Assembly: GCA_937900875.1 (NCBI GenBank)
Contig: CALCGD010000249.1
Location: 9,977 to 73,976 of the forward strand
Reading direction: 5' to 3'
DNA length: 64,000 bases
Source of the DNA: an uncultured Flavobacteriales bacterium
GTDB lineage: Bacteria > Bacteroidota > Bacteroidia > UBA10329
Positions within the stretch are counted from its first letter, which is position 1. The number at the start of each line of letters is the position of its first letter. The notes beneath the pieces are model-generated. The model had not been told where the DNA came from and ran no database searches. It saw nothing but the letters and a program-made list of their open reading frames with translations. Of this stretch, positions 5,652 to 62,186 are shown piece after piece. Made by a program: the position numbers and the translations under genes.

Positions 5652-6901
5652 TATCTGAGTTTGAGCGTTACAATTGTGAGCACGGCTAGCATTAATCCTA
5701 CAATCCAGAAGCGACCAACAATTTTGGCCTCATGCATTCCTTTTTTCTGGAAATGATGATGTAGCGGAGACATTAGGAAAATTCTTCTTCCTTCTCCGAA
5801 TTTCTTCTTGGTGTATTTGAAATAGCTAACCTGCATTACAACAGATAGATTTTCCATTAGGAATACACCACACAGAATAGGTATGAGTAATTCTTTACGA
5901 ATTGCAAGTGCGAAAACTGCGATAATTCCACCCAAAGCGAGGCTACCCGTGTCGCCCATAAACACTTGAGCAGGGTACTGATTGTACCACAAGAACCCCA
6001 CGCAAGCACCGATAAAAGCGGATATAAAAACCACCAGTTCGCCCGAACCTGGGATGTACATTATATTGAGGTAATCGGCAAAAATGATATTGCCCGATAC
6101 ATAAGCAAACACGGCAAGGGTAACGCCAATAATGGCAGAAGTTCCAGTTGCTAATCCGTCTAATCCATCCGTAAGATTTGCCCCGTTGGACACAGCTGTT
6201 ACAATGAAAATGACGATGGGAATAAAGATTAACCAACTCCAATCTTTGGCATTGTCTCCAAGGAAACCCAAGAGTGAACTGTAGTCAAATTCGTTATTCT
6301 TGAAGAAAGGAATAGTAGTAACCAGTGAATGTTCCGCTTCGCCATAAACAGGGGTTGTCTGACCTGTAACTGTTCTGCCATCTACCACCGCTTCTATAGT
6401 GGTTCCTCCGCTTGCCAGTCGTTCTTTAACCGCTACGTTTTCATTGAAGTATAGGGTGCACGCTACGATTATACCAATGCCAACTTGTCCCATTACCTTG
6501 AACTTTCCAGCTAGACCCTCTTTGTCTTTTTTAAAGACCTTGATGTAGTCGTCTATAAAACCAATGGTGCCCAACCAAATGGTCGAAACAATCATGAGAA
6601 TTACATAAACGTTGTGCAGTTGGGCAAATAGAAGGGTAGGTATTAGGATGGAAGAAAGGATGATAATCCCTCCCATTGTTGGTGTTCCTTGCTTCTGAAT
6701 TTGACCTGCCAAGTCTAGGTCTCTTACGATTTCGCCAACCTGCTTTAATTGCAGGTACTCAATTACTTTTTTGCCGATAATCATAGAGCAGATAAGCGAT
6801 GTAATTACGCTAGCTGCAGCACGGAATGAGATGTATTGGAACACTCCTGCGCCTGGCAGGTGATAATGAGTTTCTAAGAAATCGAACAGATAGTATAGCA
6901 T
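5651..6901 (-). CDS. mraY: phospho-N-acetylmuramoyl-pentapeptide transferase
   Basis: 416 aa polytopic membrane protein of the MraY/WecA family (DGLDGLA motif); dcw position. Confidence 0.9.
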
Positions 6902-13836: not shown

Positions 13837-13851
13837 TGGTGTCTTGTTCAG

Positions 13852-37611: not shown

Positions 37612-38490
37612 ATGAGTAACCTAACTGTAATAATTCCGGCATTCAATGAAGAGCAATCTTTAAAGGTGCTTCTGCCTGAATTGCTCGATTTTGTAAAACA
37701 AAACCATCTTCAATTAATTATTGTAAACGATGGTTCTTCTGATGCAACATTAGAAGTGTTAAAAGGTTTTGAGACAAGTGCTAATTTTCAATACTTCAGT
37801 CATAAGGTTAACAGAGGATATGGTGGTGCAATAAAGACAGGAATACGCCATTCTACCACTAAATATTCTATTACTATTGATGCTGACGGGCAGCATGATT
37901 TGAATGATGTTCTTGCTTTACAAAATGCCATATTAGAAACGGATGCCGATATGATTGTTGGCAGTAGAATGGCCCAAAAAAATGCCTCGATATATAGAGG
38001 CATAGGGAAATGGCTTATAAGATGGTTTGCTAAGTTGCTTCTTCCAATTCATATCGATGATATTAATTCTGGTATGAAGATTTACAATACCGAAATGGCA
38101 AAAAGGTACATTCGAATTTGCCCAAATCATATGGCTTTTAGTGACATTATTGCTATGGTTTTTATCAGTAAAAAACACTTGGTATTAGAACAACCAATCA
38201 ATATTAAACCAAGAACAGCTGGTACTAGTACTATAAGTACGCTCACTGCTATTGAGACTGTAAAGGAAATCCTCAACATTGTCATTCTGTTTAATCCAAT
38301 GAGAGTGTTTTTTCCTATCGCTGTATTAAGCGTTGTTTTGGCGCTAGCTTGGGGCGTGCCAATTGCTTTAAATGGCCGCGGAGTAAGCACGGGTGCTATG
38401 CTTGGCTTTACCACAGGTTTGTTGTTTTTCTTCTTGGGATTGCTTGCAGAGCAGTTGTCGCAAATTCGAAGAGACAGCGTTGATGAATGA
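37612..38490 (+). CDS. polyprenyl-phosphate glycosyltransferase, GT2 family (GtrB/ArnC/DPM1-like)
   Basis: 292 aa; N-terminal GT-A domain (VIIPAFNEE, DGSSD, DADGQHD DxD motif) followed by two C-terminal TM helices. This is the architecture of GtrB/ArnC. Confidence 0.75.
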   Translation: MSNLTVIIPAFNEEQSLKVLLPELLDFVKQNHLQLIIVNDGSSDATLEVLKGFETSANFQYFSHKVNRGYGGAIKTGIRHSTTKYSITIDADGQHDLNDVLALQNAILETDADMIVGSRMAQKNASIYRGIGKWLIRWFAKLLLPIHIDDINSGMKIYNTEMAKRYIRICPNHMAFSDIIAMVFISKKHLVLEQPINIKPRTAGTSTISTLTAIETVKEILNIVILFNPMRVFFPIAVLSVVLALAWGVPIALNGRGVSTGAMLGFTTGLLFFFLGLLAEQLSQIRRDSVDE

Positions 38491-39406
38491 GCAAGATTTG
38501 CAGGTTAGAAAACGCTGGTATACACAGGTTATGGATGTGTACCGTCACAATAACATTTATATTCCTGGGTTTAATTCCTTCGCTCAATTCATGCTTAAAT
38601 CCAAAGCAGAGGCGCATTTTTCTGTTATTTCTCAAAGGAGTGTATCCGATAAGCAAATTATTGATGAATGGTTTGCTTCAAAAAATGTATTCTTTGGTTA
38701 TGGGGTGTTTAGAAGCGGCACTACGTTTTTAGCCGATTTCTTAAACAGGCACGCCTCTGGTGCAGTGGTGCAGCACGAGGCAAACGTGAACGACTATTGG
38801 TATTATGCACAAGCGATGCAATCAGACGTAGATGCCAATATTTACGTAGAAAACTACCGTTCAGCTGAGGTTTATTATCGACTAGAGGGAGTGGAACTTG
38901 GGACTTACGGAGAGATAAATCCATTTTTGAGAAGGCACGTGAAGGCACTAAAACAAGCGCTACCTAGGGCCAGGCAATTTCAGCTAGTTCGCGACCCAAG
39001 AAATGTTATTCGTTCTCTCATGTCTCGCGAACTTTTCGGGAGAAAAGACCCGATGGCTGATTTGATTTGTCCCCCAAAAGAAGACGAATATTTAGAGAAG
39101 TGGCCTAGTATGTCTCGTTTCGAAAAGTTGTGTTGGCTTTGGGCTGCAGACAATCGATTCATTCGTGAAAACACCAATCATGTTGCCAAATTTGAGTTAC
39201 TCAGAACTGACTTCAGTTATTTTGATGAAAAGATTGTATCCTTTTTGAATTTAGAGGTAAACCCTGATGCCTGGCAATCAGAAATATCTAAGGTGTTCAA
39301 TTCTACTCCCCGTTATACATTTCCGAAATACGCTGATTGGTCAATGGAGCACAAGACTCAATTTGATTCGATTTGCGCACAAGAAATGGCGTATTACGAC
39401 TATTGA
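38483..39406 (+). CDS. sulfotransferase family protein
   Basis: Start taken at MNEQ, overlapping the GT2 stop (ATGA). 5'-phosphosulfate-binding loop GVFRSGTTFLADFL and 3'-phosphate motif LVRDPRNVIRSLMS (RDP...S), as in PAPS-dependent sulfotransferases. No TM segment, so cytoplasmic. Confidence 0.55.
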   Translation: MNEQDLQVRKRWYTQVMDVYRHNNIYIPGFNSFAQFMLKSKAEAHFSVISQRSVSDKQIIDEWFASKNVFFGYGVFRSGTTFLADFLNRHASGAVVQHEANVNDYWYYAQAMQSDVDANIYVENYRSAEVYYRLEGVELGTYGEINPFLRRHVKALKQALPRARQFQLVRDPRNVIRSLMSRELFGRKDPMADLICPPKEDEYLEKWPSMSRFEKLCWLWAADNRFIRENTNHVAKFELLRTDFSYFDEKIVSFLNLEVNPDAWQSEISKVFNSTPRYTFPKYADWSMEHKTQFDSICAQEMAYYDY

Positions 39407-41373
39407 CCGTTTTTCAATTGTTGTATCGACCAATTCAGATTGCCTTTTGCGAGTGCGTAATCTGGTTTTAGAATAAGTGCTTTATTACAGGCCTTTAACG
39501 CCTCCTCATAAAGCCCCAACTTATTATAAGCACTACAAATGTTGTTGTAAGCTTCGGCATAGTTGGGCTTCAATTCTAAAGACTGATATGAAGCCTTAAT
39601 GCAGTTTTCGTACTGTTCAGCATTATAGTATTTCAAGCTTAGATTCAGATATGCCTCTGGAGTGTTTTGCCTAATCGTTTCTTGTTCCAATTGTTCTAAC
39701 TTTTTGGCCAATGTTATTGTTAAGGCATCAAGAAGTCCTTTCGCTTGTTGGTGACCTGGACTCAATTCGAGGGCTAGATTCAGGTGCTTTATTGCATCGT
39801 CTTGATGGCCATTACTTTGTAGCCAATTGGCATAGTGGTAATGGCAATCTGGATAACCAGGCCCCATTTGTACAGCTTGCTTTAGGTGTTTCTCGCCTTC
39901 GACAATTAGGGTTTGGTTTTTTGTTCTTATTCCCAGGGAGTTTTTGGCAATACCAAGATTAACGTACAAGTATGGATGCCCACCATAAGAGGTTTTTAAG
40001 GCACGTTCAAAAAAGGATATGGCCGATTCCATTCTGCCCATTCGCATTTCGGTGAGGCCGTAATTCATAAGGCCGCGACCATTATTAGGACTCTTTATTG
40101 TTACATCTTTCCACAAAGAGGCATCATTATCCCAAACCTCATTTCGCTGAAAAGTACCATGGGCGTGAGCGCCTAAAAAGCAGCTGAGGATGAGTGTAAC
40201 TGCCATTTTTGAAACCACTGATGGTTTTCCCTTTGTGATTGAATCGAAAGCTAAGTAACCGGCCCAAACTGATGCTATTACCAACCCGATGTATGGAAAA
40301 AATGTACGATGATGGTTCATTACTTCAGCAAGCGGAACAATACTCGAGCTAGGGATAAGCGCCACGTAAAACCAGAAAATTCCGAAAGCGATTGGAAGTG
40401 TTTTCCTGTTTAATGCGGCCTTAAAGGCTATGAATAAGGTGATTAATATTACCGTCAATCCAAACACCACCTTACCAGAGACTAAGTCCGTAATTAAGGC
40501 TAGGTCGGAATCTGCAGTGAGTCCTGTCGGATAGAAAAAGGTTTTGATATAAACCCAGAATATATAAGGTTGTGTATTTAGATATTCTAAGGCGTTTACA
40601 TCACTCGGTTTCCATGTTTCAGAAAACATGGATCGAGTGAAAAAATACATAGCAGCACCAAACAAAAAGAAGGGTAACGTGCCTTTTAATGAAGCCCGAA
40701 TTTTCGGAATCACTTTGGCTTTTTCGTCTTTCACGAAGAAAGAAGGCGTTTCTAACAGGAAGTCATAAAGGAATAAGATTGGTGCCAGCATCAGAGTTGT
40801 TGGCTTTGCCAAACACCCAATAATCAATGGGATTAAGGCAATTTCCTTGCTCCAGCCTTTGTTGCTTATGTAGATTAAAACAGCAGATAGAACCATCAAA
40901 GTGGAAAATCCATCTGACCGAGCGATGATGTAGTTAATGGTTTCAGCCGTGGCGGTATGAAACCCAAAAAACGAGGCGCCTATTACAGCTAGTAAGTAAT
41001 GTTTTTGGCCATCAGTTTTCTCAAAAATGCGGAGCAAAAGCAAGTACAATAACCCAAGCAGCAGAAGAAATTCTAGGTATATGTGCCAGTGAAAAACTTT
41101 AGGATTGAGCGATCCGGCTATCCAATAATCTATGGCATTTAAACTTGTAATTACTGGTCGGTATGCCTGATTTGTAGGCAAGCTGCTGGTAGTTTCAGAG
41201 TCCTGAAAAAATTGTGGGAGATTGTCAATGTTCTTTATAAAGCCATTGTTGACTATTGTGTGGCTGTCGTCAAAATGAAAACCATTATCGAAATGATTCC
41301 AATACACTGCTGTAAGCGCAGCGATAAGAAAAATGGCTAGGAAAAACGCAAAAGATTTGGAATTCATGTTCAT
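39400..41373 (-). CDS. TMTC-like GT-C glycosyltransferase fused to C-terminal TPR repeats
   Basis: 657 aa; ~440-aa polytopic membrane domain with a first-loop FHFDDSHTIVNNGFI motif, followed by ~200 aa of TPR repeats. The motif compares to FVHDDxxAIVNNP of eukaryotic TMTC O-mannosyltransferases, and to the DD/DE motif of GT-C enzymes such as ArnT and PMT. Confidence 0.55.
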   Translation of the reverse strand: MNMNSKSFAFFLAIFLIAALTAVYWNHFDNGFHFDDSHTIVNNGFIKNIDNLPQFFQDSETTSSLPTNQAYRPVITSLNAIDYWIAGSLNPKVFHWHIYLEFLLLLGLLYLLLLRIFEKTDGQKHYLLAVIGASFFGFHTATAETINYIIARSDGFSTLMVLSAVLIYISNKGWSKEIALIPLIIGCLAKPTTLMLAPILFLYDFLLETPSFFVKDEKAKVIPKIRASLKGTLPFFLFGAAMYFFTRSMFSETWKPSDVNALEYLNTQPYIFWVYIKTFFYPTGLTADSDLALITDLVSGKVVFGLTVILITLFIAFKAALNRKTLPIAFGIFWFYVALIPSSSIVPLAEVMNHHRTFFPYIGLVIASVWAGYLAFDSITKGKPSVVSKMAVTLILSCFLGAHAHGTFQRNEVWDNDASLWKDVTIKSPNNGRGLMNYGLTEMRMGRMESAISFFERALKTSYGGHPYLYVNLGIAKNSLGIRTKNQTLIVEGEKHLKQAVQMGPGYPDCHYHYANWLQSNGHQDDAIKHLNLALELSPGHQQAKGLLDALTITLAKKLEQLEQETIRQNTPEAYLNLSLKYYNAEQYENCIKASYQSLELKPNYAEAYNNICSAYNKLGLYEEALKACNKALILKPDYALAKGNLNWSIQQLKNGQ

Positions 41374-42392
41374 CTATTAGCCTTCGACACTTTGTCAATT
41401 AACCCGCTGATTGATAGAGAGTCAAAATGTTTGAGGTTCGAATATAGGGCAGGCAAACCAATTGTTGCTGACCAAAAGACTGAAATAAGCCGAGTAATAA
41501 CTCCAATTAGGAGACCATCTTCAAGTTGAAATCCAGCAGCAGAAAACACAACTCCAATCATTACTTCCTGAATACCCAAGTTGCCTGGTAATAGTCGGAT
41601 TAAGAGCACAACTCTTAAGACCAACACTACTAAAAAAACGGATGGAAACTCACTTTCAACTCCTAAAACTTCAGCAGTTTTCCAAAACCAGATTGCTTGT
41701 ATTGTGACTGAGACGCTAGTTGAAATGAGCAGGCCAAAAAAGAGTTTAGTGTTTCTAAACTGATCTGCTAATTGTAACTGAACATTGATGAAAAAGTTGA
41801 TGATTTTGTTCAATGCACCATCGCCATCTCTTGGTTTGGATGGCAAAACATGAAGCGTAGCCCAAAGACCAGCTAATGCAATTCCCATTAGTATTATGGT
41901 AAATCGAAGTTCGAAAGATTGAACTGGAATTAAATACGCTAAAGCCAGCCCAACAATCACGGTTAAAAAAATGCTATTGAGGAAAACCATGAGACCCAGC
42001 GAAAACCCTTTGCTTAGATCGAGGTTATACTTGTGCTTCGAATAGAAAACCTGAAATAGCATGCCACCCTTCATAGGCATGAGGTATAAAAACAAGTGCA
42101 TCATTAAGGGCAGCGTAACGATTTCGCTTTTATCGATCTTGAGTTGATAATGAAGCCAAAACCCCATCCACATTATGACGCCAAACGAGATGTGAAACAA
42201 CAATCCCAACCCTAGCAGTAGAAAGATTTGAACCGTAGAGGTTGAACTGAATAAATGCGATAAATCGACTTCTCGAAACGTGAATGCCACCACACCAAAA
42301 AAGAGTGCGGCCGCCAAACTGAAAACCCCTATAGAACCTAACTTGGACAAATGAAAATCACTGAGTGTGCAAAATAGGTAGAAGAGCGCCAT
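41370..42392 (-). CDS. flippase-like domain membrane protein (UPF0104 / LPG-synthase TM-region family)
   Basis: 340 aa; about eight TM helices; LPGNLGIQEVMIGVVFSAAG resembles the PGGLGxxE motif of this family; 4-nt overlap with the downstream GT-C gene. Confidence 0.5.
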   Translation of the reverse strand: MALFYLFCTLSDFHLSKLGSIGVFSLAAALFFGVVAFTFREVDLSHLFSSTSTVQIFLLLGLGLLFHISFGVIMWMGFWLHYQLKIDKSEIVTLPLMMHLFLYLMPMKGGMLFQVFYSKHKYNLDLSKGFSLGLMVFLNSIFLTVIVGLALAYLIPVQSFELRFTIILMGIALAGLWATLHVLPSKPRDGDGALNKIINFFINVQLQLADQFRNTKLFFGLLISTSVSVTIQAIWFWKTAEVLGVESEFPSVFLVVLVLRVVLLIRLLPGNLGIQEVMIGVVFSAAGFQLEDGLLIGVITRLISVFWSATIGLPALYSNLKHFDSLSISGLIDKVSKANR

Positions 42393-42401
42393 TTTACTGC
42401 C

Positions 42402-43268
42402 TTGAGCACATTACATTTGCAGCCAATGAGTAAAGAAATTCCAGCAGAAGAATTGCCAGAAGAAGGCGACATGTCTTTTTTGGAGCATTTGGAAGTGTTG
42501 CGTTGGCATTTGGTCCGTTCCGTAGCGTCCATTTTTGTTTTCGCAACTGCGGCATTCATAGCTAAGTCATTCATTTTTGATACCGTTTTGCTAGGGCCTA
42601 AAAGCGGTGATTTTTGGACTTACAGAATGCTTTGCAAGCTCTCTGATAAATTTGGCCTCAGCGATTTGTTGTGTATTACCGACATTCCATTCGAACTTAT
42701 TAATATCAGCATGGCTGGTCAGTTTACCACGCATATTGTGGTTTCAATAATTGCTGGCTTCGTGGTTGCTTTTCCATACATCATATTTGAAGTTTGGAGG
42801 TTTATCAAGCCTGGTTTACATAAAACCGAGAGAAAATATGCTAACGGGATGGTGTTTTATACATCGTTTCTATTTATCACGGGCGTGCTGTTTGGTTACT
42901 ACATAATAGCGCCATTGTCGGTGAATTTTTTAGGCGGATATCACGTAAGCGATTTAGTAACCAATCAAATTGATTTGAACAGTTATTTCAGTACGGTTTC
43001 CACACTTGTTTTGGCAACTGGACTGGTGTTTGAGTTGCCTATGTTCATGTATTTTCTTACAAAAATTGGAGTGGTTACGCCTCAGTCGTTAAGGCAATAT
43101 AGAAGGCACGCGGTAGTTGGTATTCTAGTTATGGCAGCCATCATTACTCCGCCTGATGTTTCAAGCCAAGTATTGGTCTTCTTCCCGTTAATGTTGCTTT
43201 ATGAAGTAAGTATTGGGGTTTCGGCATTGGTTTTGCGCAATCAGGAAAAGGCAAATGCCGATATTTGA
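42402..43268 (+). CDS. tatC: twin-arginine translocase subunit TatC
   Basis: 288 aa; six TM helices; conserved FLEHLEVLRWHL N-terminal helix. Confidence 0.85.
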   Translation: MSTLHLQPMSKEIPAEELPEEGDMSFLEHLEVLRWHLVRSVASIFVFATAAFIAKSFIFDTVLLGPKSGDFWTYRMLCKLSDKFGLSDLLCITDIPFELINISMAGQFTTHIVVSIIAGFVVAFPYIIFEVWRFIKPGLHKTERKYANGMVFYTSFLFITGVLFGYYIIAPLSVNFLGGYHVSDLVTNQIDLNSYFSTVSTLVLATGLVFELPMFMYFLTKIGVVTPQSLRQYRRHAVVGILVMAAIITPPDVSSQVLVFFPLMLLYEVSIGVSALVLRNQEKANADI

Positions 43269-43296: not shown

Positions 43297-45900
43297 ATGA
43301 GTAAATTCAAATTTGTATTCATTGCGCTTTCCATACTTGTTTCAAGTGTTGGGTATTCTCAAGAAAAAACGAAGGTAAAAGGAACGATAACCGATGCGGC
43401 TACAGGCGAGCCTTTGCCGTTTGTGAATGTTGCATTTGTGGGTAAAAGTGTTGGAACTACCACCGATTTTAACGGTAAATACCAAATGGATACCAAGTGG
43501 GGGTCCGATGTGGTTCAGGCATCCTTTATGGGTTATGAGATGATGGAAAAACCTGTTAAACAGGGAGAGAATAACACCGTAGATTTTGCCCTTGAGCCGA
43601 AGCATATTAAGCTGGACGAGGTGGTTGTAAAAGGAAAAGGCCGCTATAAAAACAAAGAGAATCCTGCTGTTGCACTCATTCAGAAAGTAGTTGACAATAG
43701 AGAAAAGAACCGAAAGGAAGGCTTTGATCATTATCAGTACGATAAGTACGAAAAGATGCAGCTCGATATTAACAACATCACAGAGCAGTTCATGAACAGA
43801 AAGGCGTTTAAGAAATTCGCCTTTATGTGGGAATATGTGGATACATCTACGGTAAACGGCAAACCGTACCTGCCGCTATATCTCACAGAAACAAAATCGA
43901 AAGTCTATCTACGAAAAGACCCTCAGGCAGAAAAAGAGATTACATATGGCTTAAAAACCGTGGGTTTTGAAGATTTTATGGATGAGGAAGGAATCGACTA
44001 CTTCATGGAGAAGATTTATCAGGATATCGACATCTATGATAATACCATCAATATCATGGAGAAGCAGTTCAAAAGCCCAATCTCCAATATTGCGCCTATT
44101 TCTTACAAGTATTTCATTCTAGATACAATGGATGTGAGCGGGGTAGAGTGTGTGCAGTTGGCCTTTCAGGCTCGGAATAGCGCAGACTTAGCATTTAGGG
44201 GTGATTTATGGATAGCCCTGGACTCCTCTTATGCCGTTAAAAAGGTTCAAATGGGAATCACGCGAAGCGCCAACATCAATTTCGTGAGCGCATTGGAGAT
44301 TCTACAAGAATTCGATTATTCTGAAGAGTTGAACTGGCACATTGTAAAAGATCAGATGACCATAGATTATAACCTGCTTACCAATAGCATGGGTATGTAT
44401 GGTAAAAAGACGGTTACCTATAAGGATATTATAGTCAATACTCCCGCTCCGGATTCTATTTGGGCCGATCCGGCAAGGTTTATTGTGGTTGAGGATGCGA
44501 AGGAAAAAGGAGAAGAATTCTGGGATACGGCTCGCCATGAAGAATTGGATAAAAACGAGCAGGGTGTTTATGACATGACCAAGGAGATGAAGGAACTTCC
44601 AGCCTTCAAACGTGCTATGAACATCCTTTTTCTTCTCATTTCTGGCTACTATGAAGTTGGTCCTGTTGATTTTGGACCATTATATAATGCGGTAAGTCTA
44701 AATTCTGTGGAACATTGGCGTTTCCGATTGGCCGTTAAGACGAATAAGAAGTTTAATGAAAAATGGCACCTCCAAACCTATATCGCCTACGGTCTGGATG
44801 ACAGAAAAGACAAGCGATGGAAAGGTGGTGGTGGGGTTACTTACCTAATCAATCAGCGGCCTTATCATCAGATTGGAGTTGAGTTTCAAAGAGACATTCA
44901 AATGCCAGGACAAGCACTTTTGCTAGCTAGCGATGATAACATATTCCTTTCCGCCAGAAGAGGTGTTGCCAACCTAATGATCTATTACGATTCGTACCGT
45001 CTCAACTACCTTAAAGAATGGGGATTTGGGCTTGGATTAGGTATAAACTTGGAACATAGAAGGCGCGAAGTTGCCGGTGCATTGACCTTCGACCCAGTGA
45101 ACCCACTTGTTCCAGACCCAAAATTGGTTGTGACAAATGAAGTGGGGTTCAATCTAAGATATGCCCCGAATGTTAAATATTATGAGGGGCGTTCTTCCAG
45201 AGTTCCAATGCTTAATAAATGGCCTATTCTAGATGTAAACTACACGTACGCCATCCCAGAATTGCTAGGGGCGAAGAACGAATATCATAAGATAGGTGTA
45301 CGACTATTTAAGCGGTTTTACATGAGTCCGATTGGGTTTGCTGATACACAATGGGAAGGTGGTCTAATGTTAGGAAAAGTGCCGTTTCCATTGTTGTTCA
45401 TCCATCGTGGAAACCAAACATTTTTTCATGACCCAAACACGTTTAACATGATGAACTGGTTTGAGTTCGTGAGTGACAAGTACATCTCAGTAGATTATTA
45501 TCATCATTTTAATGGGTTCTTCTTTAATAAAATTCCATTTATGAAGAAGCTGAAATGGCGACTTACAAGCGGTGTAAAAGCGGTGTGGGGAGGTGTAGCA
45601 GTAAGCAATACGCCAGGACTTACTGAGAGCGATGAAATATTCAAATTCCCGAACACATTGATTGAAGATGAAGACGGAAACCCAGTCTTAGACCAGTTTG
45701 GAAATGAGCAGTACGATCAGGTGACCTTTACGCTGGAAAAAATGCCATATGTCGAGGCAAGCGTTGGAATAGAAAATATTTTCAAGATTATTAGCGTTGA
45801 CCTCGTCAAACGATTTACACATTTAGACAATCCAAATGTGTCTAAACTTGGAAACGCAAGAGGATGGGGTTTTAGAGTAAGAGCCGGAATCAGATTCTAA
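43297..45900 (+). CDS. outer-membrane protein with a carboxypeptidase-regulatory-like domain plus a DUF5686-type barrel
   Basis: 867 aa; signal peptide; Cna-B/CarbopepD_reg-like domain ([24 protein letters not shown]); a long beta-rich region ending in ...RAGIRF with a C-terminal Phe. The stop overlaps the lptB start (TAATG). Confidence 0.6.
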
Positions 45901-46622
45901 TGAGGTTACACGCAGAAAACATCAAGAAAAAATACGGAAGCCGAACGGTTGTTAAAGGCGTGTCTTTTGATGTTAATCAGGGCGAAATTGTGGGTCTACT
46001 CGGACCAAATGGTGCTGGTAAAACAACTTCATTTTATATGATTGTTGGGTTAATTAGACCGAATGAAGGCAAGGTATATTTGGATGAGCGTGAGATTACG
46101 GACATGCCCATGTACAAGCGTGCCCAGCTCGGAATTGGGTATTTGCCACAGGAAGCTTCTGTTTTTCGAAAGCTTACAGTTGAGGACAACATATTGGCCG
46201 TGTTGGAAATGCTAGGGGCATCTAAAGACGAGCAGTACGCCAAACTTGAATCACTCCTGGATGAATTTGGTTTACAGCATGTTCGAAAGAACAGAGGAGA
46301 CCTGCTTTCTGGGGGTGAAAGAAGAAGAACTGAAATTGCCAGATGCTTGGCTGTAAATCCGAACTTCATCTTGTTAGATGAGCCTTTTGCAGGCGTGGAT
46401 CCCATAGCGGTTGAAGACATTCAACAGATTGTGGCTAAACTCAAAAAGAAGAACATTGGTATATTAATCACCGATCATAATGTGCACGAAACATTGCGCA
46501 TAACTGACCGTGCATATTTGCTGTTTGAAGGCTCTATTCTAAAGGCTGGTACAGCGGAGGAATTAGCGGCAGATGAGCAGGTGAGACGGGTGTATCTTGG
46601 TCAGAATTTCGTACTCAGATAG
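45900..46622 (+). CDS. lptB: LPS export ABC transporter ATP-binding protein LptB
   Basis: 240 aa; Walker [10 protein letters not shown], signature LSGGERRR, Walker B ILLDEP; LptB-typical length. Confidence 0.8.
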
Positions 46623-51572: not shown

Positions 51573-52697
51573 TTGCTTTCAAACATGACCAGACTACTTT
51601 TCGTCTTCCTCATACTTTCTGCCTCTTTTATGCTTGGAAATCAGGCATTTGCACAAACACCTAAGTACTCTAATGAATTTTTGGCAATTGGCGTTGGAGC
51701 TCGCGGAATGGGTATGGCCAACAGCATGGTGGCTAGTGTAAATGATGTGACAGGAGGGTATTGGAATCCTGCTGCATTGCCGTTGGCTCAAAGAAAGTGG
51801 CAGGTTTCGCTCATGCACTCAGAGTATTTTGCTGGAATCGCTAAGTACGATTACGCAGCAATTTCAGCACCTATTCTTGATGAACATACTCAAGCGGCTT
51901 TCACTTTTATTCGATTTGGGGTTGATGATATTCCAAATACCACTCAGCTTTTAGATGATGAGGGCAACATAGACTACGATAGAGTTACGGCCTTTACAGC
52001 TGCAGATTATGCTTTTCAGTTTAGTGTTGGTCGAAAAAGCCCCAAAATACCGGGATTGAGATATGGCGGAACTGTTAAAGTCGTGTATCGTCATGTAGGA
52101 AAGTTTGCCAGTTCTTGGGGGTTTGGCTTGGATGGTGGTGTTCAGTATGACCTAGGTAAATGGAAATTCGGTTTAATGGCAAGAGACGTAACTTCTACAT
52201 TCAATGCCTGGAATTTCACTCTAGATGATGAAACCAAAGAAGTTTGGCTTCAAACGGGAAATGAGATTCCTAAAAACTCATTGGAGGTTACGCTTCCAAA
52301 AATGATTTTAGGAGCTGGTCGCAGATTCAATATCTACAAAAAGTTTGGTGTTTATACCGAGTTTAACTTCGATTTTACGTTTGATGGAAAGCGTTCTGTT
52401 CTCATAAAAGGCGACCCAATAAGTATTGAGCCGCATTGGGGAATGGAATTATTTTACTCCGATTTTGTATATGTCCGTTTTGGTGTAACCAACATTCAGG
52501 ACTATACAAATGATGATGGCGATAAAATTTGGACTTGGCAGCCAAATGTTGGTGTAGGAGTCCGAATTAAAGATTTCTATATCGATTATGCTTTAACAGA
52601 TGTAGGAAACCAATCCGTTGCGTTGTTTAGTAATGTATTCTCCCTGCGGGTAGACATACATAAAGACATGTTTAAAAAGAAAGAGAAGATTGAATGA
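51573..52697 (+). CDS. T9SS-associated outer-membrane beta-barrel of the PorV/PorQ (FadL-like) family
   Basis: 374 aa; signal peptide; N-terminal EFLAIGVGARGMGMANSMVA...GGYWNPAAL resembles the FLxIxxxARxxGMG...NPA signature of PorV/PorQ shuttle proteins. The stop overlaps the next start (ATGA at 52694..52697). Confidence 0.5.
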   Translation: MLSNMTRLLFVFLILSASFMLGNQAFAQTPKYSNEFLAIGVGARGMGMANSMVASVNDVTGGYWNPAALPLAQRKWQVSLMHSEYFAGIAKYDYAAISAPILDEHTQAAFTFIRFGVDDIPNTTQLLDDEGNIDYDRVTAFTAADYAFQFSVGRKSPKIPGLRYGGTVKVVYRHVGKFASSWGFGLDGGVQYDLGKWKFGLMARDVTSTFNAWNFTLDDETKEVWLQTGNEIPKNSLEVTLPKMILGAGRRFNIYKKFGVYTEFNFDFTFDGKRSVLIKGDPISIEPHWGMELFYSDFVYVRFGVTNIQDYTNDDGDKIWTWQPNVGVGVRIKDFYIDYALTDVGNQSVALFSNVFSLRVDIHKDMFKKKEKIE

Positions 52698-55600
52698 GGA
52701 AACTTTTACTGATAGCTTTCTTGCTTCAGTCTGTTTTTGCCTTTTCGCAGCCGTATGGTAACGAATGGGTGAATGCCTCTCAACCTCATTTCAAATTTAA
52801 CATACACCAAGAGGGAGTTTATCGCATTAGCTATCAGGTTTTATCCGATGCTTTGGCCGCGCAAGGCCTAAACCTCAATTCCATTGATCCTCGAAATATT
52901 CAAATTTTTGCCCGTGGCGAAGAACAATATCTGTATGTAGGAGGTGAGGCTGATGGGAATTTTGATACCAACGATTTTATTGAATTCTATGCTCGCAAAA
53001 ATGATGGGGTATTAGATACGGAGGTCTATTTCGATAATCCGCTCAATAACGCCAACCCGTACCATAGTCTAATAAACGACACAATTCGGTACTTCCTTAC
53101 TTGGAACAACTCTATTGCCAATGCGAGAATGACGTTGGAATCGGATGTCAATTTTACTGGATACACCCAGTCTTCGTACATATTAAGAGATGAAATAGAC
53201 GAGTTGCACGACACCTATTTTACTGGTCAAAACTACGTGGTAACAGGCAGTCCAAGCCCGATTTATTCTGGTGGAGAAGGTTTTTACGGTTACTATTTTG
53301 ATGCAGGCTGGACTGATAGTTTTTGGAATTTAGGAACTGTGTTTAGAGATGCTTCTGGCCCAGATGCAGAGGTGGAAATTGGAATAGTTGGCGCCTCTTT
53401 CGATGATAAAAACCTTCATATTCAAGGTCCATCTATCAGTTTTGATACGGTAATGGAAAAATACAACGGCTATCGGTTCAATTTCAATGTGCCAACGGCC
53501 TCTCTCGGAGTAAATGCGTCCAACTTCACATTCTCTATGAACAACCCTGTTACTAACGGTTCGTATCGTGCAATTGTTGGTTTTGTAAGAGTACGATACC
53601 CACAAACTCCAAATGTTGGAAACGGACAAACAGCAAAGTTTATCGTTGACGATAACCCAAATTATCCAAGTCAAGCCAAGAGTTATGTTCAGTTGGCTGG
53701 GTATACGCAAGGAACTCCACGACTTTACGACTTAACCAATCATAAACGGATTTCAGTTGGTGGTTCGCCAGGTAGTTACCGCTTTCTAATACCAGACAAC
53801 GGCAGTTTAAAACACTGCTATTTAACCAACGAATCAGGAATTGCATCAAACGCTATTTCTGTTCTTACACCTGCTGGATCAAATGGCTCTGTTTTCTTCA
53901 CGGATTTCGATGCTTTGGACGCAAATACAGACTATTTCGCCATCGGAAATGCTTCTATGTTTGCGGAGGTTCAGCAATACGCGGCTTATCGAAATGTATC
54001 GGGTTATAATGCGATTGCTATAGATGCTGATGAACTCTATAACCAGTTTGGGTGGGGAATAAATAAGCACCCGCTGGCTATTCGAAAATTTGCCAATTGG
54101 GCGTTAGGAAACCTCACCGCCCCTTCGCATATCTTCCTCATAGGCAAATCGGTTTCGTCTCTTTCTGCTCGAAATAATCCCGCTCTTTTTGCAGAGATTA
54201 TGGTGCCAAGTTTTGGTCATCCGCCTAGCGATAATATGCTCACATCATATCTCGGAACGGGAACTTATTTAGAAGAAACAGGAATTCCTGTTGGGAGATT
54301 GGCCGCAAAAAGTGGTGATGACGTGACCGAGTATCTAGATAAGATAATGGAGTACGAAGCGTTGCCGAACAATCTTTGGATGAAACGAATCCTGCACTTT
54401 TCGGGTGGTGGTACGCAAAACGAAGTTGCCCAAATTCGTTCGTTTATGGATTCGTACAAAACCATAATTGAAGACACGCTTTACGGTGCCAGTGTTCAAA
54501 CTTTTCAGAAAACGAGTTCAGAGCCTTTTCAAATTACACAGGTCGATTCTATTACAGATTTGGTTGAGACCGGTGTTCAGTTGATTAATTTCTTTGGACA
54601 TGGGTCAGCCGTTGGTTTCGATGTCAGTATAGATCATCCTTCTCTGTTCAATAATCAAAACGGTAAGTATCCGTTTATGATGGCGAATTCATGTTTTGCA
54701 GGAGATATCCACCAACCCTCAAGTGTTCCAACTTCAATTTCTGAAAACTGGGTACTCGAGCCACAAGGTGGAGCGCTTGGATTTTTAGCTACAATTGGTC
54801 CAGGTAGCAGGTTTTACCTCAATAGTTATTGCACTAATTTCTACCACAGTGTTAGTCATTTAGAGTACTATAACACCATTGGCTGGCAGATTAAGAAAGC
54901 CATTAGAGAAAATGCGCAGCCGTTTAATGACATTACCAAGTTGCACAATCTGGAGTATACGCTCCATGGCGATCCAGCATTAAACATCACCAACAGGGAG
55001 AAACCAGATTTAATGGTTAATCAGCCTGCTATTTGGTTTGAACCGGAAGAGATTACCACCGAGATGGCTGATTTTGAAATGTTTGTGAAGATTACCAATT
55101 TGGGTGCTGCTTTCACAGATTCTTTTGTAGTAGAGATAACTCGACAACTTCCAACCGGACAAATTGATACCACTATCAGTATTATTCATCCGCCTGTTTA
55201 TTACCTAGATACTATGAGTGTATTTATCCCAATCGATTTGATTGATGGATTGGGTATTAATACCATTTGCATTTCGCTCGATAATACGCAAATCATAGAT
55301 GAACTTTCGGAAGTGAACAATGATGTTTGTATTGACGTGAACGTCTTATCTCCAGATATTGTGCCTATTTGGCCATATAAGTTCGCTGTAATTCCAGACC
55401 AAGGTCCAACCTTGAAATGTTCTACAGGTAGCCCTTTTGCACCAGAAAAAACGTATAGGATTGAACTGGATACAACCGATTTATTCAATAGTCCGTTAAT
55501 GCAGTTTACCACCATCACCCAGGGTGGCGGTGTTGTTAATTGGACACCAGGCTTACTTCAAAACATGCCAGATAGTACAGTCTATTTTTGGCGAGCAAGC

Positions 55601-57736
55601 GTTGATTCTGCCACCTACGGTTTTTACAAATGGAGAGAAACTTCCTTTCAGTACATCGTAGATAAGTATGGTTGGGGACAAGCACACTACTTCCAATACA
55701 AGGAAGACGATCACATTAATATGGTTTACAACCGTCCTGAATTAGACTGGGATTTTGTGCAAACCATGAAGCAGTTTAAGATTAACAATTTTGGTAATCC
55801 TACTACGCTGGCTGAGGCGGAAGCCATCAATTTCTTTATAGATAATGGTAGAGAGGAATACCTCGGTTGCACGGGAGGAAACGTGTTTACACCGCAGCTG
55901 CTTACCGCGGTAATGGATGGGTGTACCCTCAAGCCTTGGGAAACTCCCGGAAACGACCCAGAAACGGGTGAGTTTATTCCTGGAGGAGGAGCGCAAGGGC
56001 AGTTAGAACCTTGTAGAACCCGTCCTGAAAAATGGTACCAATGGGCTGCTACCAGCGGTACATCAATGAATAACATGGTTACGTTTTTAGGAAACACAGT
56101 TCCTGATAGCAGCTATATAGGAATAGCCACTTGGCTTAACGTAAACCTTGCTGGGCTACCCGCCAACGTGCTTCAGGTTTTTCACGATTTAGGTGCTACA
56201 GCCATCGATACACTCTCTGGTGTTCCGTATGCGTTTTTCGCGCAAAAAGGAAATCCAGCTTCGGCCATAGAAGTTTTTGGAACCGACATCAACGACTATA
56301 TAAGCCTTACGGCTGATATGACTGGATGTTGGAACAACGGAACAATCACCTCTAAGTACATTGGACCTACATCGCAGTGGAATTCGTTGCATGTTCGTTC
56401 TCACCCCAAGGAAAACCCAACATTAGATAGCATTGGCATCAATGTAATTGGGGTACGCCCGAGTGGTGTAGAAGAGGTGGTTATGACTGGAATTAATGGT
56501 AATAGCACCGATATTCTTGATTTATATAACTCTATTGATGCTGCAGAATTTCCTCGATTAAAACTCAATGCCTACTGTAGTGATGATAGTTCTGCTAGCA
56601 CTCCGCCACAAATGGATAGGTGGCAGGTGTTGTTTGATGGAGTGCCGGAAGCTGCACTAAATCCGCATATAGGCTACCATTTTGAAAGTGATACTATTAA
56701 TGATGGTGAGCTTCTGAAATTCACCGTGGCAATTGAAAATATCAGCGATTTCGATATGGATAGTTTGCTGGTGCATTACTGGATACAGGATGGGCAAGGC
56801 AATCGAAATTACATTCCGTATCCGCGACAGGCGCCTTTGTTGGCTGGAGATATTTTACTCGATACCGTCATAACTGATCCGCTCGATTTCTTAGGAGGAA
56901 ATGTGTTTTGGGTGGAAGTTAACCCGAGAAGACCGGATCAAACTTCGGGCTACGATCAGCTAGAGCAATATCACTTCAATAATCTAGCAAACGTTCAGTT
57001 TTCTGTTTCTGGAGATGATGTAAACCCAATAATGGATGTGACCTTTGATGGTATTCACATTCTTGATGGTGATATCGTTTCTGCCAAACCATTTATTGTG
57101 ATTGAGTTGGATGATGAGAGTCAATTCAGATTGCTAAACGACACCGCAGATTTCCAAGTGTTCTTAAAACAACCGGAATCAGAAGTACTACAAAGGGTTT
57201 GGTTTGAGGGCTTCACTAACATGCAGTTTTATCCAGGTGAAGAACCTACAAACAAGGCACGAATTGAATGGCCAGCTGAGTTTGCTGCCGATGGTGTCTA
57301 CGAACTTTGGGTACAGGGCCACGACAAATCGAACAATGCCTCAGGAGATCAATACTACCGAATAAGTTTCGAGGTAATTAACGAAGCCACCATCAGTAAT
57401 GTGCTCAATTATCCAAACCCGTTCTCAACGTCCACCCATTTCGTATTTACAATTACCGGTTCAGAGCAGCCAGATTATTTCAAAATACAGGTAATGACCA
57501 TCACCGGCAAGGTGGTCAGAGAAATTACCATGGACGAACTGGGCCACATGAATATTGGCCGAAATGTGACCCAATATGCGTGGGATGGAAAAGACACCTA
57601 CGGAGACCAGCTCGCCAATGGCGTTTATCTTTACAGAATGGTCGCCAAATTAGATGGCGCATACATCGAGCATCGCGATAGCGGAGCCGACAGATGGATT
57701 GAAAGTGGTTTTGGCAAGATGATGTTGATTCGCTAA
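52694..57736 (+). CDS. gingipain-like C25 cysteine peptidase with a T9SS type-A C-terminal domain (PorU-like or paralogue)
   Basis: 1680 aa; signal peptide; C25 catalytic dyad context INFFGHGSAVGFD ... 27 aa ... MANSCFAGD; C-terminal type-A sorting domain with YPNPF and GVYLY motifs. Confidence 0.6.
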   Translation: MRKLLLIAFLLQSVFAFSQPYGNEWVNASQPHFKFNIHQEGVYRISYQVLSDALAAQGLNLNSIDPRNIQIFARGEEQYLYVGGEADGNFDTNDFIEFYARKNDGVLDTEVYFDNPLNNANPYHSLINDTIRYFLTWNNSIANARMTLESDVNFTGYTQSSYILRDEIDELHDTYFTGQNYVVTGSPSPIYSGGEGFYGYYFDAGWTDSFWNLGTVFRDASGPDAEVEIGIVGASFDDKNLHIQGPSISFDTVMEKYNGYRFNFNVPTASLGVNASNFTFSMNNPVTNGSYRAIVGFVRVRYPQTPNVGNGQTAKFIVDDNPNYPSQAKSYVQLAGYTQGTPRLYDLTNHKRISVGGSPGSYRFLIPDNGSLKHCYLTNESGIASNAISVLTPAGSNGSVFFTDFDALDANTDYFAIGNASMFAEVQQYAAYRNVSGYNAIAIDADELYNQFGWGINKHPLAIRKFANWALGNLTAPSHIFLIGKSVSSLSARNNPALFAEIMVPSFGHPPSDNMLTSYLGTGTYLEETGIPVGRLAAKSGDDVTEYLDKIMEYEALPNNLWMKRILHFSGGGTQNEVAQIRSFMDSYKTIIEDTLYGASVQTFQKTSSEPFQITQVDSITDLVETGVQLINFFGHGSAVGFDVSIDHPSLFNNQNGKYPFMMANSCFAGDIHQPSSVPTSISENWVLEPQGGALGFLATIGPGSRFYLNSYCTNFYHSVSHLEYYNTIGWQIKKAIRENAQPFNDITKLHNLEYTLHGDPALNITNREKPDLMVNQPAIWFEPEEITTEMADFEMFVKITNLGAAFTDSFVVEITRQLPTGQIDTTISIIHPPVYYLDTMSVFIPIDLIDGLGINTICISLDNTQIIDELSEVNNDVCIDVNVLSPDIVPIWPYKFAVIPDQGPTLKCSTGSPFAPEKTYRIELDTTDLFNSPLMQFTTITQGGGVVNWTPGLLQNMPDSTVYFWRASVDSATYGFYKWRETSFQYIVDKYGWGQAHYFQYKEDDHINMVYNRPELDWDFVQTMKQFKINNFGNPTTLAEAEAINFFIDNGREEYLGCTGGNVFTPQLLTAVMDGCTLKPWETPGNDPETGEFIPGGGAQGQLEPCRTRPEKWYQWAATSGTSMNNMVTFLGNTVPDSSYIGIATWLNVNLAGLPANVLQVFHDLGATAIDTLSGVPYAFFAQKGNPASAIEVFGTDINDYISLTADMTGCWNNGTITSKYIGPTSQWNSLHVRSHPKENPTLDSIGINVIGVRPSGVEEVVMTGINGNSTDILDLYNSIDAAEFPRLKLNAYCSDDSSASTPPQMDRWQVLFDGVPEAALNPHIGYHFESDTINDGELLKFTVAIENISDFDMDSLLVHYWIQDGQGNRNYIPYPRQAPLLAGDILLDTVITDPLDFLGGNVFWVEVNPRRPDQTSGYDQLEQYHFNNLANVQFSVSGDDVNPIMDVTFDGIHILDGDIVSAKPFIVIELDDESQFRLLNDTADFQVFLKQPESEVLQRVWFEGFTNMQFYPGEEPTNKARIEWPAEFAADGVYELWVQGHDKSNNASGDQYYRISFEVINEATISNVLNYPNPFSTSTHFVFTITGSEQPDYFKIQVMTITGKVVREITMDELGHMNIGRNVTQYAWDGKDTYGDQLANGVYLYRMVAKLDGAYIEHRDSGADRWIESGFGKMMLIR

Positions 57737-60299: not shown

Positions 60300-62006
60300 T
60301 TATTTCAGCATTACACGTTTGCTGTAGTTACGGATTCCATTAGATAGGTTGATTATGTAGATACCTCTTGCGAGGTCATTTACATCAAGATTTACTTTAT
60401 TCAATCCGTCATATCCTACGCCACCAAAATCAAGAACTCTACGTCCGCTTGCATCATATAGCATGATGGTGTAATCTTCATTTTCTCTAGATGTGAACTC
60501 AACTACAAGCTCGCTATGGTCAACGTCATAAGCGTTAACAAAATTGAATTCGCTGTCATCAGATCCACATGTTACAGCAAGTACATCTGAGTATTCAAAC
60601 TTACCTGCGAAATCAACATTTTTCAATCGGTAGTAAGAAGTTCCTCCATAAGGTAATTCATCTACAACCGTATAAGAGATTGGCTGGTTGCTGTTTCCAG
60701 CACCTTCAATCACATCAACAATTTCCCAATCAGTACCATTATTGCTTCTTTCTACAGTAAAGAAATCGTTGTTTGTTTCTGTCCAAGTAGTCCAGCTCAG
60801 GTCAATTTTTCCGTTAGCGCACTCGCCAACAAATCGAACCAATTCAATTGGTAGAGGATCACTGTTATCAACCAATGTCCACACTGGGTACATGTCTTCA
60901 TAGCTAGTCGCTGGATCCTGACCAATTTGTATTGAAACTGTGTTTGCTGCTGTATTGGTAATAACTGAAGGGACTCCATAAATCCAGTCACCCCATTTGT
61001 CAAGGTCATGATTGTAACGTTGAGCTATTAGGTTGGCTTCCGTAATGTGGTTTATCGGACCGGCAATTTCAGCATCTGCGTACTTAAAAACGTATTCGGA
61101 TCTTGGATTTACTCCATAACCACCATTGTCCTCGCCAATGTTTCCTTCATCAATAATCCAAAATCTATCTGTAACAAACCTGTGAGCGGCTTGTATGTAA
61201 TCATCCGTCAAATGATTAACAGTGGTTGGAAGGTCAGACCAAGCAGCGCCAGGGTAAGGACCTGCAGTAATATTTGGGTATGTTCCTTCATCAAACGTGT
61301 TGTACTCATCTGTTCCGTACGTGGCAAATGTTTTGTACGCGGAAGATGGTGTTCCAGCAGTTGTAATGTTGTAACCAAATGCCAAGTTAGCAGGAGCTGG
61401 GGCATCTGTACCAAAAGGTATAGTGTAGTTACCAGTAAGAGTTCCAATGTCCCACTTAAGTATTCCGTATCCACCACTAGATGGAGCGCTTTCAGAAATA
61501 ATAAATCCCCCAAAGTTGGAAATAGCCCCAGGTCCTAAAGCAGCATTTTCCAAAGTAAGTGTTTGGGAGTTTAGACGAACGCTTTGAAACGACAGAGAAA
61601 GTTGTCCGTAGACATCGGTATCGACCCCATTTAACGTCTTTTTTCCAGAACCTGCTACTCGTAAATTGTAAAAATTTGTTTTTACCGTTCCAGTGATATC
61701 GGCCGCTGCTCCGTCAAGCTCAACCATTCCGCCAGTGGTTGCTATTGGAGTTGCTCCAAAGACACCATTCGCGTCATTATTCTCCCATTCACCTTCAACT
61801 TGGATAATTCCATTATTCGTGACCTGACCTGAAGTTTCATTCTTAAATCCCCCCCCGTCAATGTTCAAATATGTGCCTGTAGTAACATTAATCTTGGCGC
61901 CATTATTTACCATTCCCTGACCAAAAGATGCAGAATATGCTGCAATCGAAATGGCAACAACGAGTGAGGTAATCTTGGAGGATGAGTATATAGATTTCAT
62001 GGTCAT
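60300..62006 (-). CDS. secreted Gly-rich beta-helix-like protein with a T9SS type-A C-terminal domain
   Basis: Start taken at MTMKSIY (signal peptide SLVVAISIAAYSASFGQ); Gly/Thr/Asn-rich repeats; a penultimate module ELVRFVGECANGKIDLSWTT...YYRLKNVDFAGKFEYSDV common in T9SS cargo; C-terminal GIYIINL...KRVMLK. Confidence 0.65.
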   Translation of the reverse strand: MTMKSIYSSSKITSLVVAISIAAYSASFGQGMVNNGAKINVTTGTYLNIDGGGFKNETSGQVTNNGIIQVEGEWENNDANGVFGATPIATTGGMVELDGAAADITGTVKTNFYNLRVAGSGKKTLNGVDTDVYGQLSLSFQSVRLNSQTLTLENAALGPGAISNFGGFIISESAPSSGGYGILKWDIGTLTGNYTIPFGTDAPAPANLAFGYNITTAGTPSSAYKTFATYGTDEYNTFDEGTYPNITAGPYPGAAWSDLPTTVNHLTDDYIQAAHRFVTDRFWIIDEGNIGEDNGGYGVNPRSEYVFKYADAEIAGPINHITEANLIAQRYNHDLDKWGDWIYGVPSVITNTAANTVSIQIGQDPATSYEDMYPVWTLVDNSDPLPIELVRFVGECANGKIDLSWTTWTETNNDFFTVERSNNGTDWEIVDVIEGAGNSNQPISYTVVDELPYGGTSYYRLKNVDFAGKFEYSDVLAVTCGSDDSEFNFVNAYDVDHSELVVEFTSRENEDYTIMLYDASGRRVLDFGGVGYDGLNKVNLDVNDLARGIYIINLSNGIRNYSKRVMLK

Positions 62007-62186
62007 CAAATTATTTGTTTCAACCCAAATAGATTGAACCGAACGTAAAGCTATTATTTTACACCTGAAAGTTTTAGTAAAAAAGCATTGCCATTTAAAT
62101 TTCAACTTTGCAGGAATCTTACATTTCGTGGAATTAATACGATTTTACAACGCCTACGTTGTGTCGTTTATCGATAAATATGCCGC

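Follow-up and report, generated by a model that had tools for sequence, protein, structure and literature searches.

Animal TMTC1-4, assigned to CAZy family GT105, are protein O-mannosyltransferases of the endoplasmic reticulum that act on cadherins and protocadherins. They have 11 transmembrane (TM) helices, together with seven ligand-binding motifs that are conserved (M1-M7; Table 4 of PMC7801869), and as of that 2021 report their transferase activity had been inferred rather than demonstrated. The same paper mentions prokaryotic TMTC homologues, and GT105 appears in the automatic CAZyme count of a bacterial genome; our full-text literature searches found no characterised bacterial TMTC homologue and no named O-oligosaccharyltransferase (O-OTase) of the Bacteroidota. 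Here we describe a 64,000-nucleotide stretch of DNA (the window) from an uncultured Flavobacteriales bacterium (contig CALCGD010000249.1), in which one open reading frame (ORF) encodes a GT-C glycosyltransferase domain followed by tetratricopeptide repeats (TPRs). An earlier note, made from the sequence alone, interpreted this gene as a bacterial TMTC-like GT-C/TPR enzyme, and that interpretation is largely supported. Judged by profile comparison, the protein is a distant TMTC homologue that falls outside Pfam DUF1736 membership.

We propose that this protein is a TMTC-type GT-C enzyme of the inner membrane and that it acts last in a periplasmic glycosylation module of four genes, with Ser/Thr residues of proteins as its most likely acceptor; we give this reading a probability of roughly 0.65. 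The identical 657-amino acid (aa) protein is encoded on 14 metagenome contigs.

A TMTC-like transmembrane domain

Two alignments represent the bacterial family: A1, of 50 full-length homologues that are 40-73% identical, and A2, of 21 N-terminal domains. The TMTC set was taken from supplementary file 2 of PMC7801869 and consists of the human, zebrafish and Drosophila sequences of TMTC1-4. In hhalign, A2 aligned to TMTC1-4 with 99.4% probability (E = 6e-22) over 390 columns (query 18-419, template 8-432), an alignment that spans the entire TM domain and all 11 TM helices; controls with the reversed TMTC alignment and five column-shuffled versions gave probabilities of at most 1.9%. The window sequence alone reached 97.7% against the TMTC profile. 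In HMMER, the hidden Markov model (HMM) of A2 scored 12 TMTCs at 42-83 bits (42-89 bits for both directions together), and the TMTC HMM scored the window domain at 47.7 bits, equivalent to E = 6.5e-17 for one sequence and to about 1e-7 when scaled to 1.8e9 sequences. The affinity is specific to TMTC: A2 aligned to the window's own ArnT/PMT_2-type GT-C enzyme with a probability of only 29%, over 121 columns.

The first-loop motif, WNHFDNGFHFDDSHTIVNNGFIKN, comes straight after the first hydrophobic helix (aa 7-23), where the earlier note had placed it. Its resemblance to the conserved loop of the TMTCs, also claimed there, is borne out by 9 of 12 identities between human TMTC4 (GDFVFDDSEAIVNNKDL) and the window protein (NGFHFDDSHTIVNNGFI) over FxFDDSxxIVNN, and hhalign sets the two DD pairs in one column.

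General sequence libraries recognise a different part of the protein. Pfam and NCBIfam, applied to all 657 aa, returned TPR families only, as did phmmer against PDB sequences with TPR proteins. PF08409 (DUF1736, the loop that joins TM7 to TM8) was absent from the protein and from the close homologues examined, and the GT-C/TPR protein contains no MIR domain. The homology of the whole TM domain surfaces only with a whole-domain TMTC profile and not with the Pfam DUF1736, PMT and PMT_2 HMMs.

Predicted fold and topology

AlphaFold2 (AF2) modelled the full-length protein with a predicted local distance difference test (pLDDT) of 90.7 and a predicted template-modelling score (pTM) of 0.83, and the N-terminal domain alone with a pLDDT of 84.9 and a pTM of 0.89. 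When the N-terminal model was compared with the PDB in Foldseek, 18 of the 21 best matches were GT-C enzymes with probabilities of 0.95-1.00, and no match of another kind exceeded 0.15. The GT-C matches, with query TM-scores of 0.33-0.51, include AglB (5gmy, E = 1e-5), ArnT (5f15, E = 7.8e-4), STT3, PglB, PimE, Pmt1/2 (6p25_B) and EmbC. For the full-length model, the top 50 matches listed were TPR or helical-repeat proteins with no GT-C enzyme among them, and TMTC chains were found among PDB matches neither by sequence profile nor by Foldseek. Residues from about 435 to 650 match many Pfam TPR models (TPR_2 at 3.2e-16, TPR_1 at 2.2e-12, also TPR_19), and this part also matches PDB sequences, namely those of consensus TPR proteins and of OGT's TPR domain. 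The proposed architecture, a GT-C domain with C-terminal TPRs, is supported by Foldseek and Pfam, and similarity to GT-C enzymes emerges from both profile and structural comparison.

The model contains 11 TM helices, the same number as TMTC. With the N-terminus inside, the density of Lys plus Arg is 0.26 per residue for loops predicted to be cytoplasmic, compared with 0.056 for those predicted to be periplasmic, and the positive-inside rule accordingly assigns the DD loop (aa 24-97) to the periplasm, in keeping with the extracytoplasmic position that the earlier note had given to the DD pair. Because the TPR array follows the 11th, odd-numbered helix, it should lie on the same side. The loops with H139/E144, K190, D288 and R356 are likewise predicted to face the periplasm.

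Conservation of proposed ligand-binding residues

Residues F34, D35, D36, H38 and N43 are invariant in the 50 homologues of A1, and the first-loop motif is therefore not a product of chance; the acidic pair, which had been singled out as a GT-C hallmark, is retained in 50 of 50. Across A1 and A2, residues that are invariant or nearly so also include N68, Y71, R72, P73, H139, E144, Y148, R152, S153, D154, K190, P282, D288, D290, P327, P341, N353, H355, R356, R410 and W414, with D154 present in 48 of the 50 homologues and replaced by Glu in the other two. A catalytically dead TPR scaffold was considered as a candidate and ruled out, given that the retained proposed catalytic and ligand residues are invariant (D154 with the two exceptions just given).

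The TMTC motifs, in TMTC3 numbering, are DD (31-32) and SHKSYRP (66-72) in loop 1, RxD (143-145), KE(T/Q)xxT (188-193), DW (303-304), PxxP (358-361) and ERxxY (375-379) (PMC7801869). The window protein follows them in close register: DD at 35-36 against 31-32, YRP at 71-73 against 70-72, RxD at 152-154 against 143-145, Lys at 190 against 188, Asp at 288 against 303, and Arg at 356 against 376. In hhalign, (NQA)YRP pairs with (SHKS)YRP, H139..E144 with HP.HTE and R152-S-D154 with GRAD; K190 falls on the Lys of KE and P282..L285..D288 on P..L..DW; IPSSS is aligned with PASN, H355-R356 with ER, and R410-N411 with the RN that follows TM11 of TMTC. Motifs M1 (DD) and M3 (RxD) are both present. For M5, D288 and D290 are present and the Trp is found in half of the family; for M6, the second Pro alone (P341) is present; and M7 reads HR for ER.

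A recurrent four-gene module

The GT-C gene is grouped with genes for a GT2 glycosyltransferase, a sulfotransferase-like protein and a PF03706 membrane protein (Table 1). The GT2 gene is convergent with the GT-C gene. Against the PDB, its product matches ArnC over its full length (9hwj, E = 8.5e-14, residues 3-288), followed by DPMS (5mlz, an archaeal dolichyl-phosphate-mannose synthase) and GtrB (5ekp); its best NCBIfam matches, PpgS, AglJ, ArnC and PgfS, are polyprenyl-phosphate glycosyl synthases without exception and all fall below the equivalog cut-offs. The 5' end of the sulfotransferase-like gene overlaps the GT2 stop by 8 nt (start confirmed), and its 3' end overlaps that of the GT-C gene by 7 nt. 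The encoded protein features conserved R-(S/T)-G-T and R-D-x5-R-S motifs that resemble the loops binding 3'-phosphoadenosine 5'-phosphosulfate. The PF03706 gene is located upstream of the GT-C gene, with its stop overlapping the GT-C start by 4 nt. Its Pfam match covers profile positions 3-300 of 302, and the NCBIfam model TIGR00374 ('flippase-like domain') matches weakly (E = 0.0095, 15.4 bits versus a cut-off of 43.2). As for the donor synthase and flippase that the earlier note expected to be co-encoded, genes of both families are indeed present, the second as a presumptive flippase. The PF03706 gene and tatC are divergent, with predicted starts about 10-35 nt apart (42392-42426); this leaves near-absent promoter space, and one start may be miscalled.

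Table 1. Position of the GT-C/TPR gene, its parts and associated genes in the window
Feature	Position	Strand	Basis
TMTC-like GT-C glycosyltransferase with TPR domain, 657 aa	39400..41373	-	ORF call
N-terminal 11-TM GT-C domain, aa 1-415	40129..41373	-	hhalign to TMTC1-4, Foldseek, helix map
First-loop motif WNHFDNGFHFDDSHTIVNNGFIKN (predicted periplasmic), aa 25-48	41230..41301	-	Exact translation
Catalytic candidates D35-D36	41266-41271	-	Invariant in 50/50; aligned to TMTC DD motif M1
C-terminal TPR array (predicted periplasmic), aa 417-656, about 7-8 helical hairpins	39406..40125	-	Pfam, PDB sequence matches, AF2 helices
GT2 polyprenyl-phosphate glycosyltransferase, 292 aa, candidate donor synthase	37612..38490	+	Pfam Glycos_transf_2, 2.4e-27
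Sulfotransfer_3-like protein, 307 aa, candidate donor-sugar tailoring enzyme	38483..39406	+	Pfam PF13469, 5.3e-9
PF03706 (LPG_synthase_TM, MprF flippase-domain family) membrane protein, 340 aa, candidate flippase	41370..42392	-	Pfam, 2e-20
Second GT-C enzyme, no TPRs, 525 aa	46624-48201	-	Pfam PMT_2, 2.4e-9; DUF2079; PMT

All four genes occur together in loci of Flavobacteriales and other Bacteroidota (L004-L007, L010, L011). The module is also found in two loci on contigs labelled Gammaproteobacteria, L012 (8955-14324) and L013 (8964-13735), on contigs of 841 kb and 381 kb. Their module genes are 46-73% identical to those of the window, and they share none of its other flanking genes; in L012, a collagen-repeat/DUF7467 protein (6056-8005) is encoded on one side of the module and a fragment of an ISL3 transposase (13851-14324) on the other. 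These two loci suggest horizontal transfer of the module as a unit, and the collagen-like neighbour might be a substrate. In L008 (2371-6785), the module is reordered yet together, the flanks differ, and genes for an NAD-epimerase and a FAD-oxidoreductase-like protein are added. The latter is reminiscent of the DprE1/DprE2-type epimerisation of a lipid-linked sugar; in L029 (12300-19876), too, there is a gene for an NAD-dependent epimerase, accompanied by unannotated genes that encode about 510-540 aa.

The PF03706 gene adjoins the GT-C gene in L004-L007 and L010-L013. A sulfotransferase-like gene accompanies the GT-C gene in 11 loci, and its position is taken by a methyltransferase in 5 loci and by an epimerase in 14. 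When L037 (9995-12840) and L089 are compared with window positions 37612-42392, the flanks prove near-identical (RecQ 85-86%, GT2 80-81%, TatC 76% and DUF5686 86% identical), but identity drops to only 41% for the GT-C/TPR gene, and both the sulfotransferase gene and the PF03706 gene are lacking. The pattern resembles the exchange of a cassette, with the sulfotransferase gene, the PF03706 gene and the GT-C subclade moving together.

Among 44 non-redundant loci with at least 6 kb on both sides, a GT2 gene lies within 6 kb of the GT-C gene in 28. More distant family members are associated with a different arrangement. A gene for a small DUF2304 membrane protein is present in 26 of 85 loci and adjoins a short PpgS-like GT2 gene wherever both are listed; in L071 (12313-14273) and L079 (13067-14123), for example, the GT-C gene precedes DUF2304 and a short GT2 of about 237 aa that has PpgS as its best NCBIfam match. 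A methyltransferase gene often stands between the GT-C gene and this pair, which we take to resemble the mycobacterial PpgS/Rv3632 pair.

Several loci encode further repeat proteins. L004 (5070-8974) and L005 carry two tandem GT-C/TPR paralogues (644 and 657 aa) after a single PF03706 gene, the GT-C/TPR homologues P0032 and P0008 are located on one contig, and Aquimarina has, convergent with its GT-C gene, the gene of a further TPR protein (740 aa). Within the window, tblastn found no paralogue of the GT-C/TPR gene, returning weak matches only. In L017 (2-1903), where the GT-C/TPR gene neighbours a sulfotransferase gene, a 633-aa Peptidase_S74 (endosialidase-chaperone) protein is encoded directly upstream of the former. 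The Peptidase_S74 domain is typical of self-cleaving trimeric fibre proteins, and this protein is another possible substrate candidate.

A proposed periplasmic glycosylation pathway

We infer a polyprenyl-phosphate-linked sugar as the donor of the GT-C enzyme from the adjacent and recurrently linked ArnC/DPMS-like GT2. In the proposed pathway, this ArnC/DPMS/PpgS-like GT2 would act at the cytoplasmic face of the membrane, charging undecaprenyl phosphate with a single sugar taken from a nucleotide sugar. The translationally coupled sulfotransferase-like enzyme may then tailor the sugar, which is the weakest step of the scheme; the PF03706 membrane protein would flip the lipid-linked sugar; and the GT-C domain would move the sugar to a periplasmic acceptor. 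Within that domain, the candidates for holding the lipid phosphate and sugar are K190, R356/H355 and Y71-R72, those for holding a metal are E144 and D288/D290, and D35/D36 may activate the acceptor hydroxyl. The TPR array would select proteins, with Ser/Thr the most likely acceptor, as in animal TMTCs.

A more detailed version of this pathway posits a sulfated donor, formed by a cytoplasmic sulfotransferase of the 3'-phosphoadenosine 5'-phosphosulfate type from the undecaprenyl-phosphate-sugar that the GT2 makes, PF03706 as the dedicated flippase for the doubly anionic lipid, transfer of a sulfated monosaccharide to periplasmic or surface proteins, and a locus that represents one allele of a swappable donor-tailoring cassette. 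The sulfotransferase gene, PF03706 gene and GT-C subclade come and go together between conserved flanks (L037 and L089 versus the window); we nevertheless treat this version as tentative and doubt that it is correct as a whole.

Several observations weigh against the proposal of a TMTC-type enzyme at the end of such a pathway. The comparison with Pfam DUF1736 and PMT models that the earlier note recommended came out negative: the N-terminal 434 aa gave no Pfam match at E <= 10, including DUF1736, PMT and PMT_2, and a profile of the N-terminal domain (hmmsearch) found nothing among PDB sequences at the same threshold. Although hhalign aligns the DUF1736 loop, it is divergent and does not contain the DNPA stretch. 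Some of the ligand-binding motifs are altered. M2 is partial, reading (NQA)YRP for SHKSYRP with His-Lys replaced by Asn-Gln, and M4 keeps K190 while its metal-binding Glu is replaced by Pro191 (Pro in 34 and Glu in 12 of the 50 homologues). The partner genes raise doubts of their own. Compared with PDB sequences, the sulfotransferase-like protein had two insignificant matches (E = 0.27 and 0.89) and the PF03706 protein had no relative of known structure; outside MprF, moreover, PF03706 proteins are presumed flippases. No GT2 gene lies within 6 kb in 16 of the 44 fully flanked loci, L001, L003 and L009 have none nearby, and the PMT_2-type GT-C of the window could share the GT2's lipid-linked sugar.

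Alternative explanations

One alternative retains the same chemistry with a non-protein acceptor, such that the sugar would be added to an envelope glycan or lipid (lipopolysaccharide, lipid A, peptidoglycan or capsule) and the TPRs would dock the enzyme to an assembly machine. ArnT is among the best structural matches (5f15), and the GT2 is most like ArnC and PpgS, the products of which end in lipid A and arabinogalactan. Glycan-modifying three-component systems are common in bacteria, and ArnT, GtrC-type enzymes and mycobacterial Rv3779 all decorate envelope glycans or lipids. The profile affinity of the window protein, however, is to TMTC and not to the ArnT/PMT_2 type (99.4% versus 29%), and the C-terminal TPR array is kept throughout the family; the TPR arrays of TMTC and OGT select protein substrates. 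We consider an envelope glycan or lipid acceptor rather unlikely.

Alternatively, the adjacency of the genes could represent inherited synteny, with the GT2 feeding the PMT_2-type GT-C or another pathway and the donor of the TMTC-like enzyme made elsewhere. The PMT_2-type gene, which L006 and L089 have as well, is 5 kb away, many Bacteroidota loci share a TatC ... RecQ frame such that some linkage is phylogenetic inertia, and the 16 loci without a nearby GT2 are in line with this explanation. It becomes improbable when other loci are considered: the loci L008, L012 and L013 have the four-gene module but lack TatC, RecQ and the PMT_2 gene, and the GT2 next to distant members is a different one that is associated with DUF2304 and belongs to the same functional class. 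For these two reasons, the GT2 linkage points to a functional association rather than one by descent.

Lastly, it is very improbable that the protein is the OTase of Bacteroidota general O-glycosylation, which would act en bloc from undecaprenyl diphosphate on D(S/T)(A/I/L/V/M/T) sites: this enzyme is unnamed for the phylum in glycoproteome papers (PMC10897501, PMC11611037), the OTases AglB, STT3 and PglB are top structural matches, and the family is widespread in Bacteroidota, but the conserved partner is a polyprenyl-monophosphate-sugar synthase, pointing to a single-sugar donor, the gene, a cassette that can be swapped and has tandem paralogues, is not a single housekeeping copy, the same-flank relatives L037 and L089 carry a version that is 41% identical, and the TMTCs, which are its nearest homologues, transfer mannose as a single sugar (PMC7801869).

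Other genes of the window

The second GT-C enzyme, 5 kb from the TMTC-like gene, adjoins an ABC ATPase gene (45900-46622), and its orthologues occupy the same place in L006 and L089. The window also encodes type IX secretion genes at 51573-57736 (+) and 60300-62105 (-). A 374-aa ORF without a Pfam match (possibly PorV) comes before the gene for a PorU-like Peptidase_C25 protein of 1680 aa, and a 601-aa protein carries a Por_Secre_tail sorting domain. Type IX secretion cargo is one candidate class of acceptor for the proposed TMTC-type enzyme.

Distribution and significance

The window protein is one member of a very large bacterial family. When 1.84 billion cluster representatives were scanned in full with A2 (HMMER), 65,366 proteins matched at E <= 1e-3, 36,404 at E <= 1e-10 and 5,628 at E <= 1e-30; among 8,000 candidates scored from a 5.8-billion-protein collection, 685 were homologues. 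These are chiefly from Bacteroidota metagenome-assembled genomes, with a few labelled Lysobacterales or Xanthomonadales. Named homologues are mostly 'tetratricopeptide repeat protein', and some JGI records use PilF. The earlier note anticipated a tractable model for the TMTC family. The organism of the window, being uncultured, does not provide one, but cultured strains of Aquimarina, Hydrotalea and Mucilaginibacter carry family members that are 41-45% identical to the window protein; examples of such carriers are Aquimarina agarilytica ZC1, Hydrotalea sandarakina DSM 23241 and Mucilaginibacter frigoritolerans ATCC BAA-1854.

The family keeps the TMTC architecture and most of the proposed ligand residues, next to a probable donor pathway and in cultured strains, and could thereby open biochemistry, structure and genetics that are harder to follow in animal cells. 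Thousands of database entries named for their tetratricopeptide repeats are probably periplasmic glycosyltransferases. Together, they would represent an unexplored glycosylation pathway of Bacteroidota, probably one that acts on proteins.

Relationship to described glycosylation systems

The proposed pathway is analogous to ArnC/ArnT-type and GtrA/GtrB/GtrC-type systems, in which a GT2 makes an undecaprenyl-phosphate-linked sugar that is flipped and then transferred by a GT-C enzyme in the periplasm. Unlike in those systems, the GT-C enzyme of the window has TPRs and by hhalign is not of the ArnT/PMT_2 type, a PF03706 protein rather than GtrA or ArnE/F is the candidate for flipping, and a sulfotransferase-like gene is inserted. 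Fungal and animal PMT (GT39) and actinobacterial Pmt share with the window protein the GT-C fold and an acidic pair in loop 1; they differ in that the window protein has neither a Pfam PMT/PMT_2 match nor a MIR domain and features a TPR array instead.

Similarities are also found to the Streptococcus mutans Pgf system, which comprises the PgfS GT2, the PgfE epimerase and the membrane glycosyltransferases PgfM1/M2, and to the mycobacterial PpgS/Rv3632/Rv3779 pathway. The family-adjacent GT2s have PgfS and PpgS among their best NCBIfam matches, and the short GT2 with DUF2304 gene, as well as the epimerase, recur in related loci. These matches are far below the equivalog cut-offs, however (for example, 81 versus 370 bits), and the GT-C partners of those pathways are not known to be TMTC-like or to have TPRs.

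Animal TMTC1-4 resemble the window protein in their N-terminal 11-TM GT-C domain, in a C-terminal TPR array on the non-cytoplasmic side (predicted here), and in the motifs DD, YRP, H..E/RxD, K, P..L..D, IPSSS~PASN, (H/E)R and RN, whose order is shared and whose residue numbers nearly coincide. They differ in sequence, the window protein being about 18-24% identical and not matched by the Pfam DUF1736 loop model, and in the expected donor, for which the lipid must here be undecaprenyl rather than dolichyl and the sugar need not be mannose. In a further departure from its animal counterparts, the window gene is part of an operon-like module with candidate genes for its own donor pathway.

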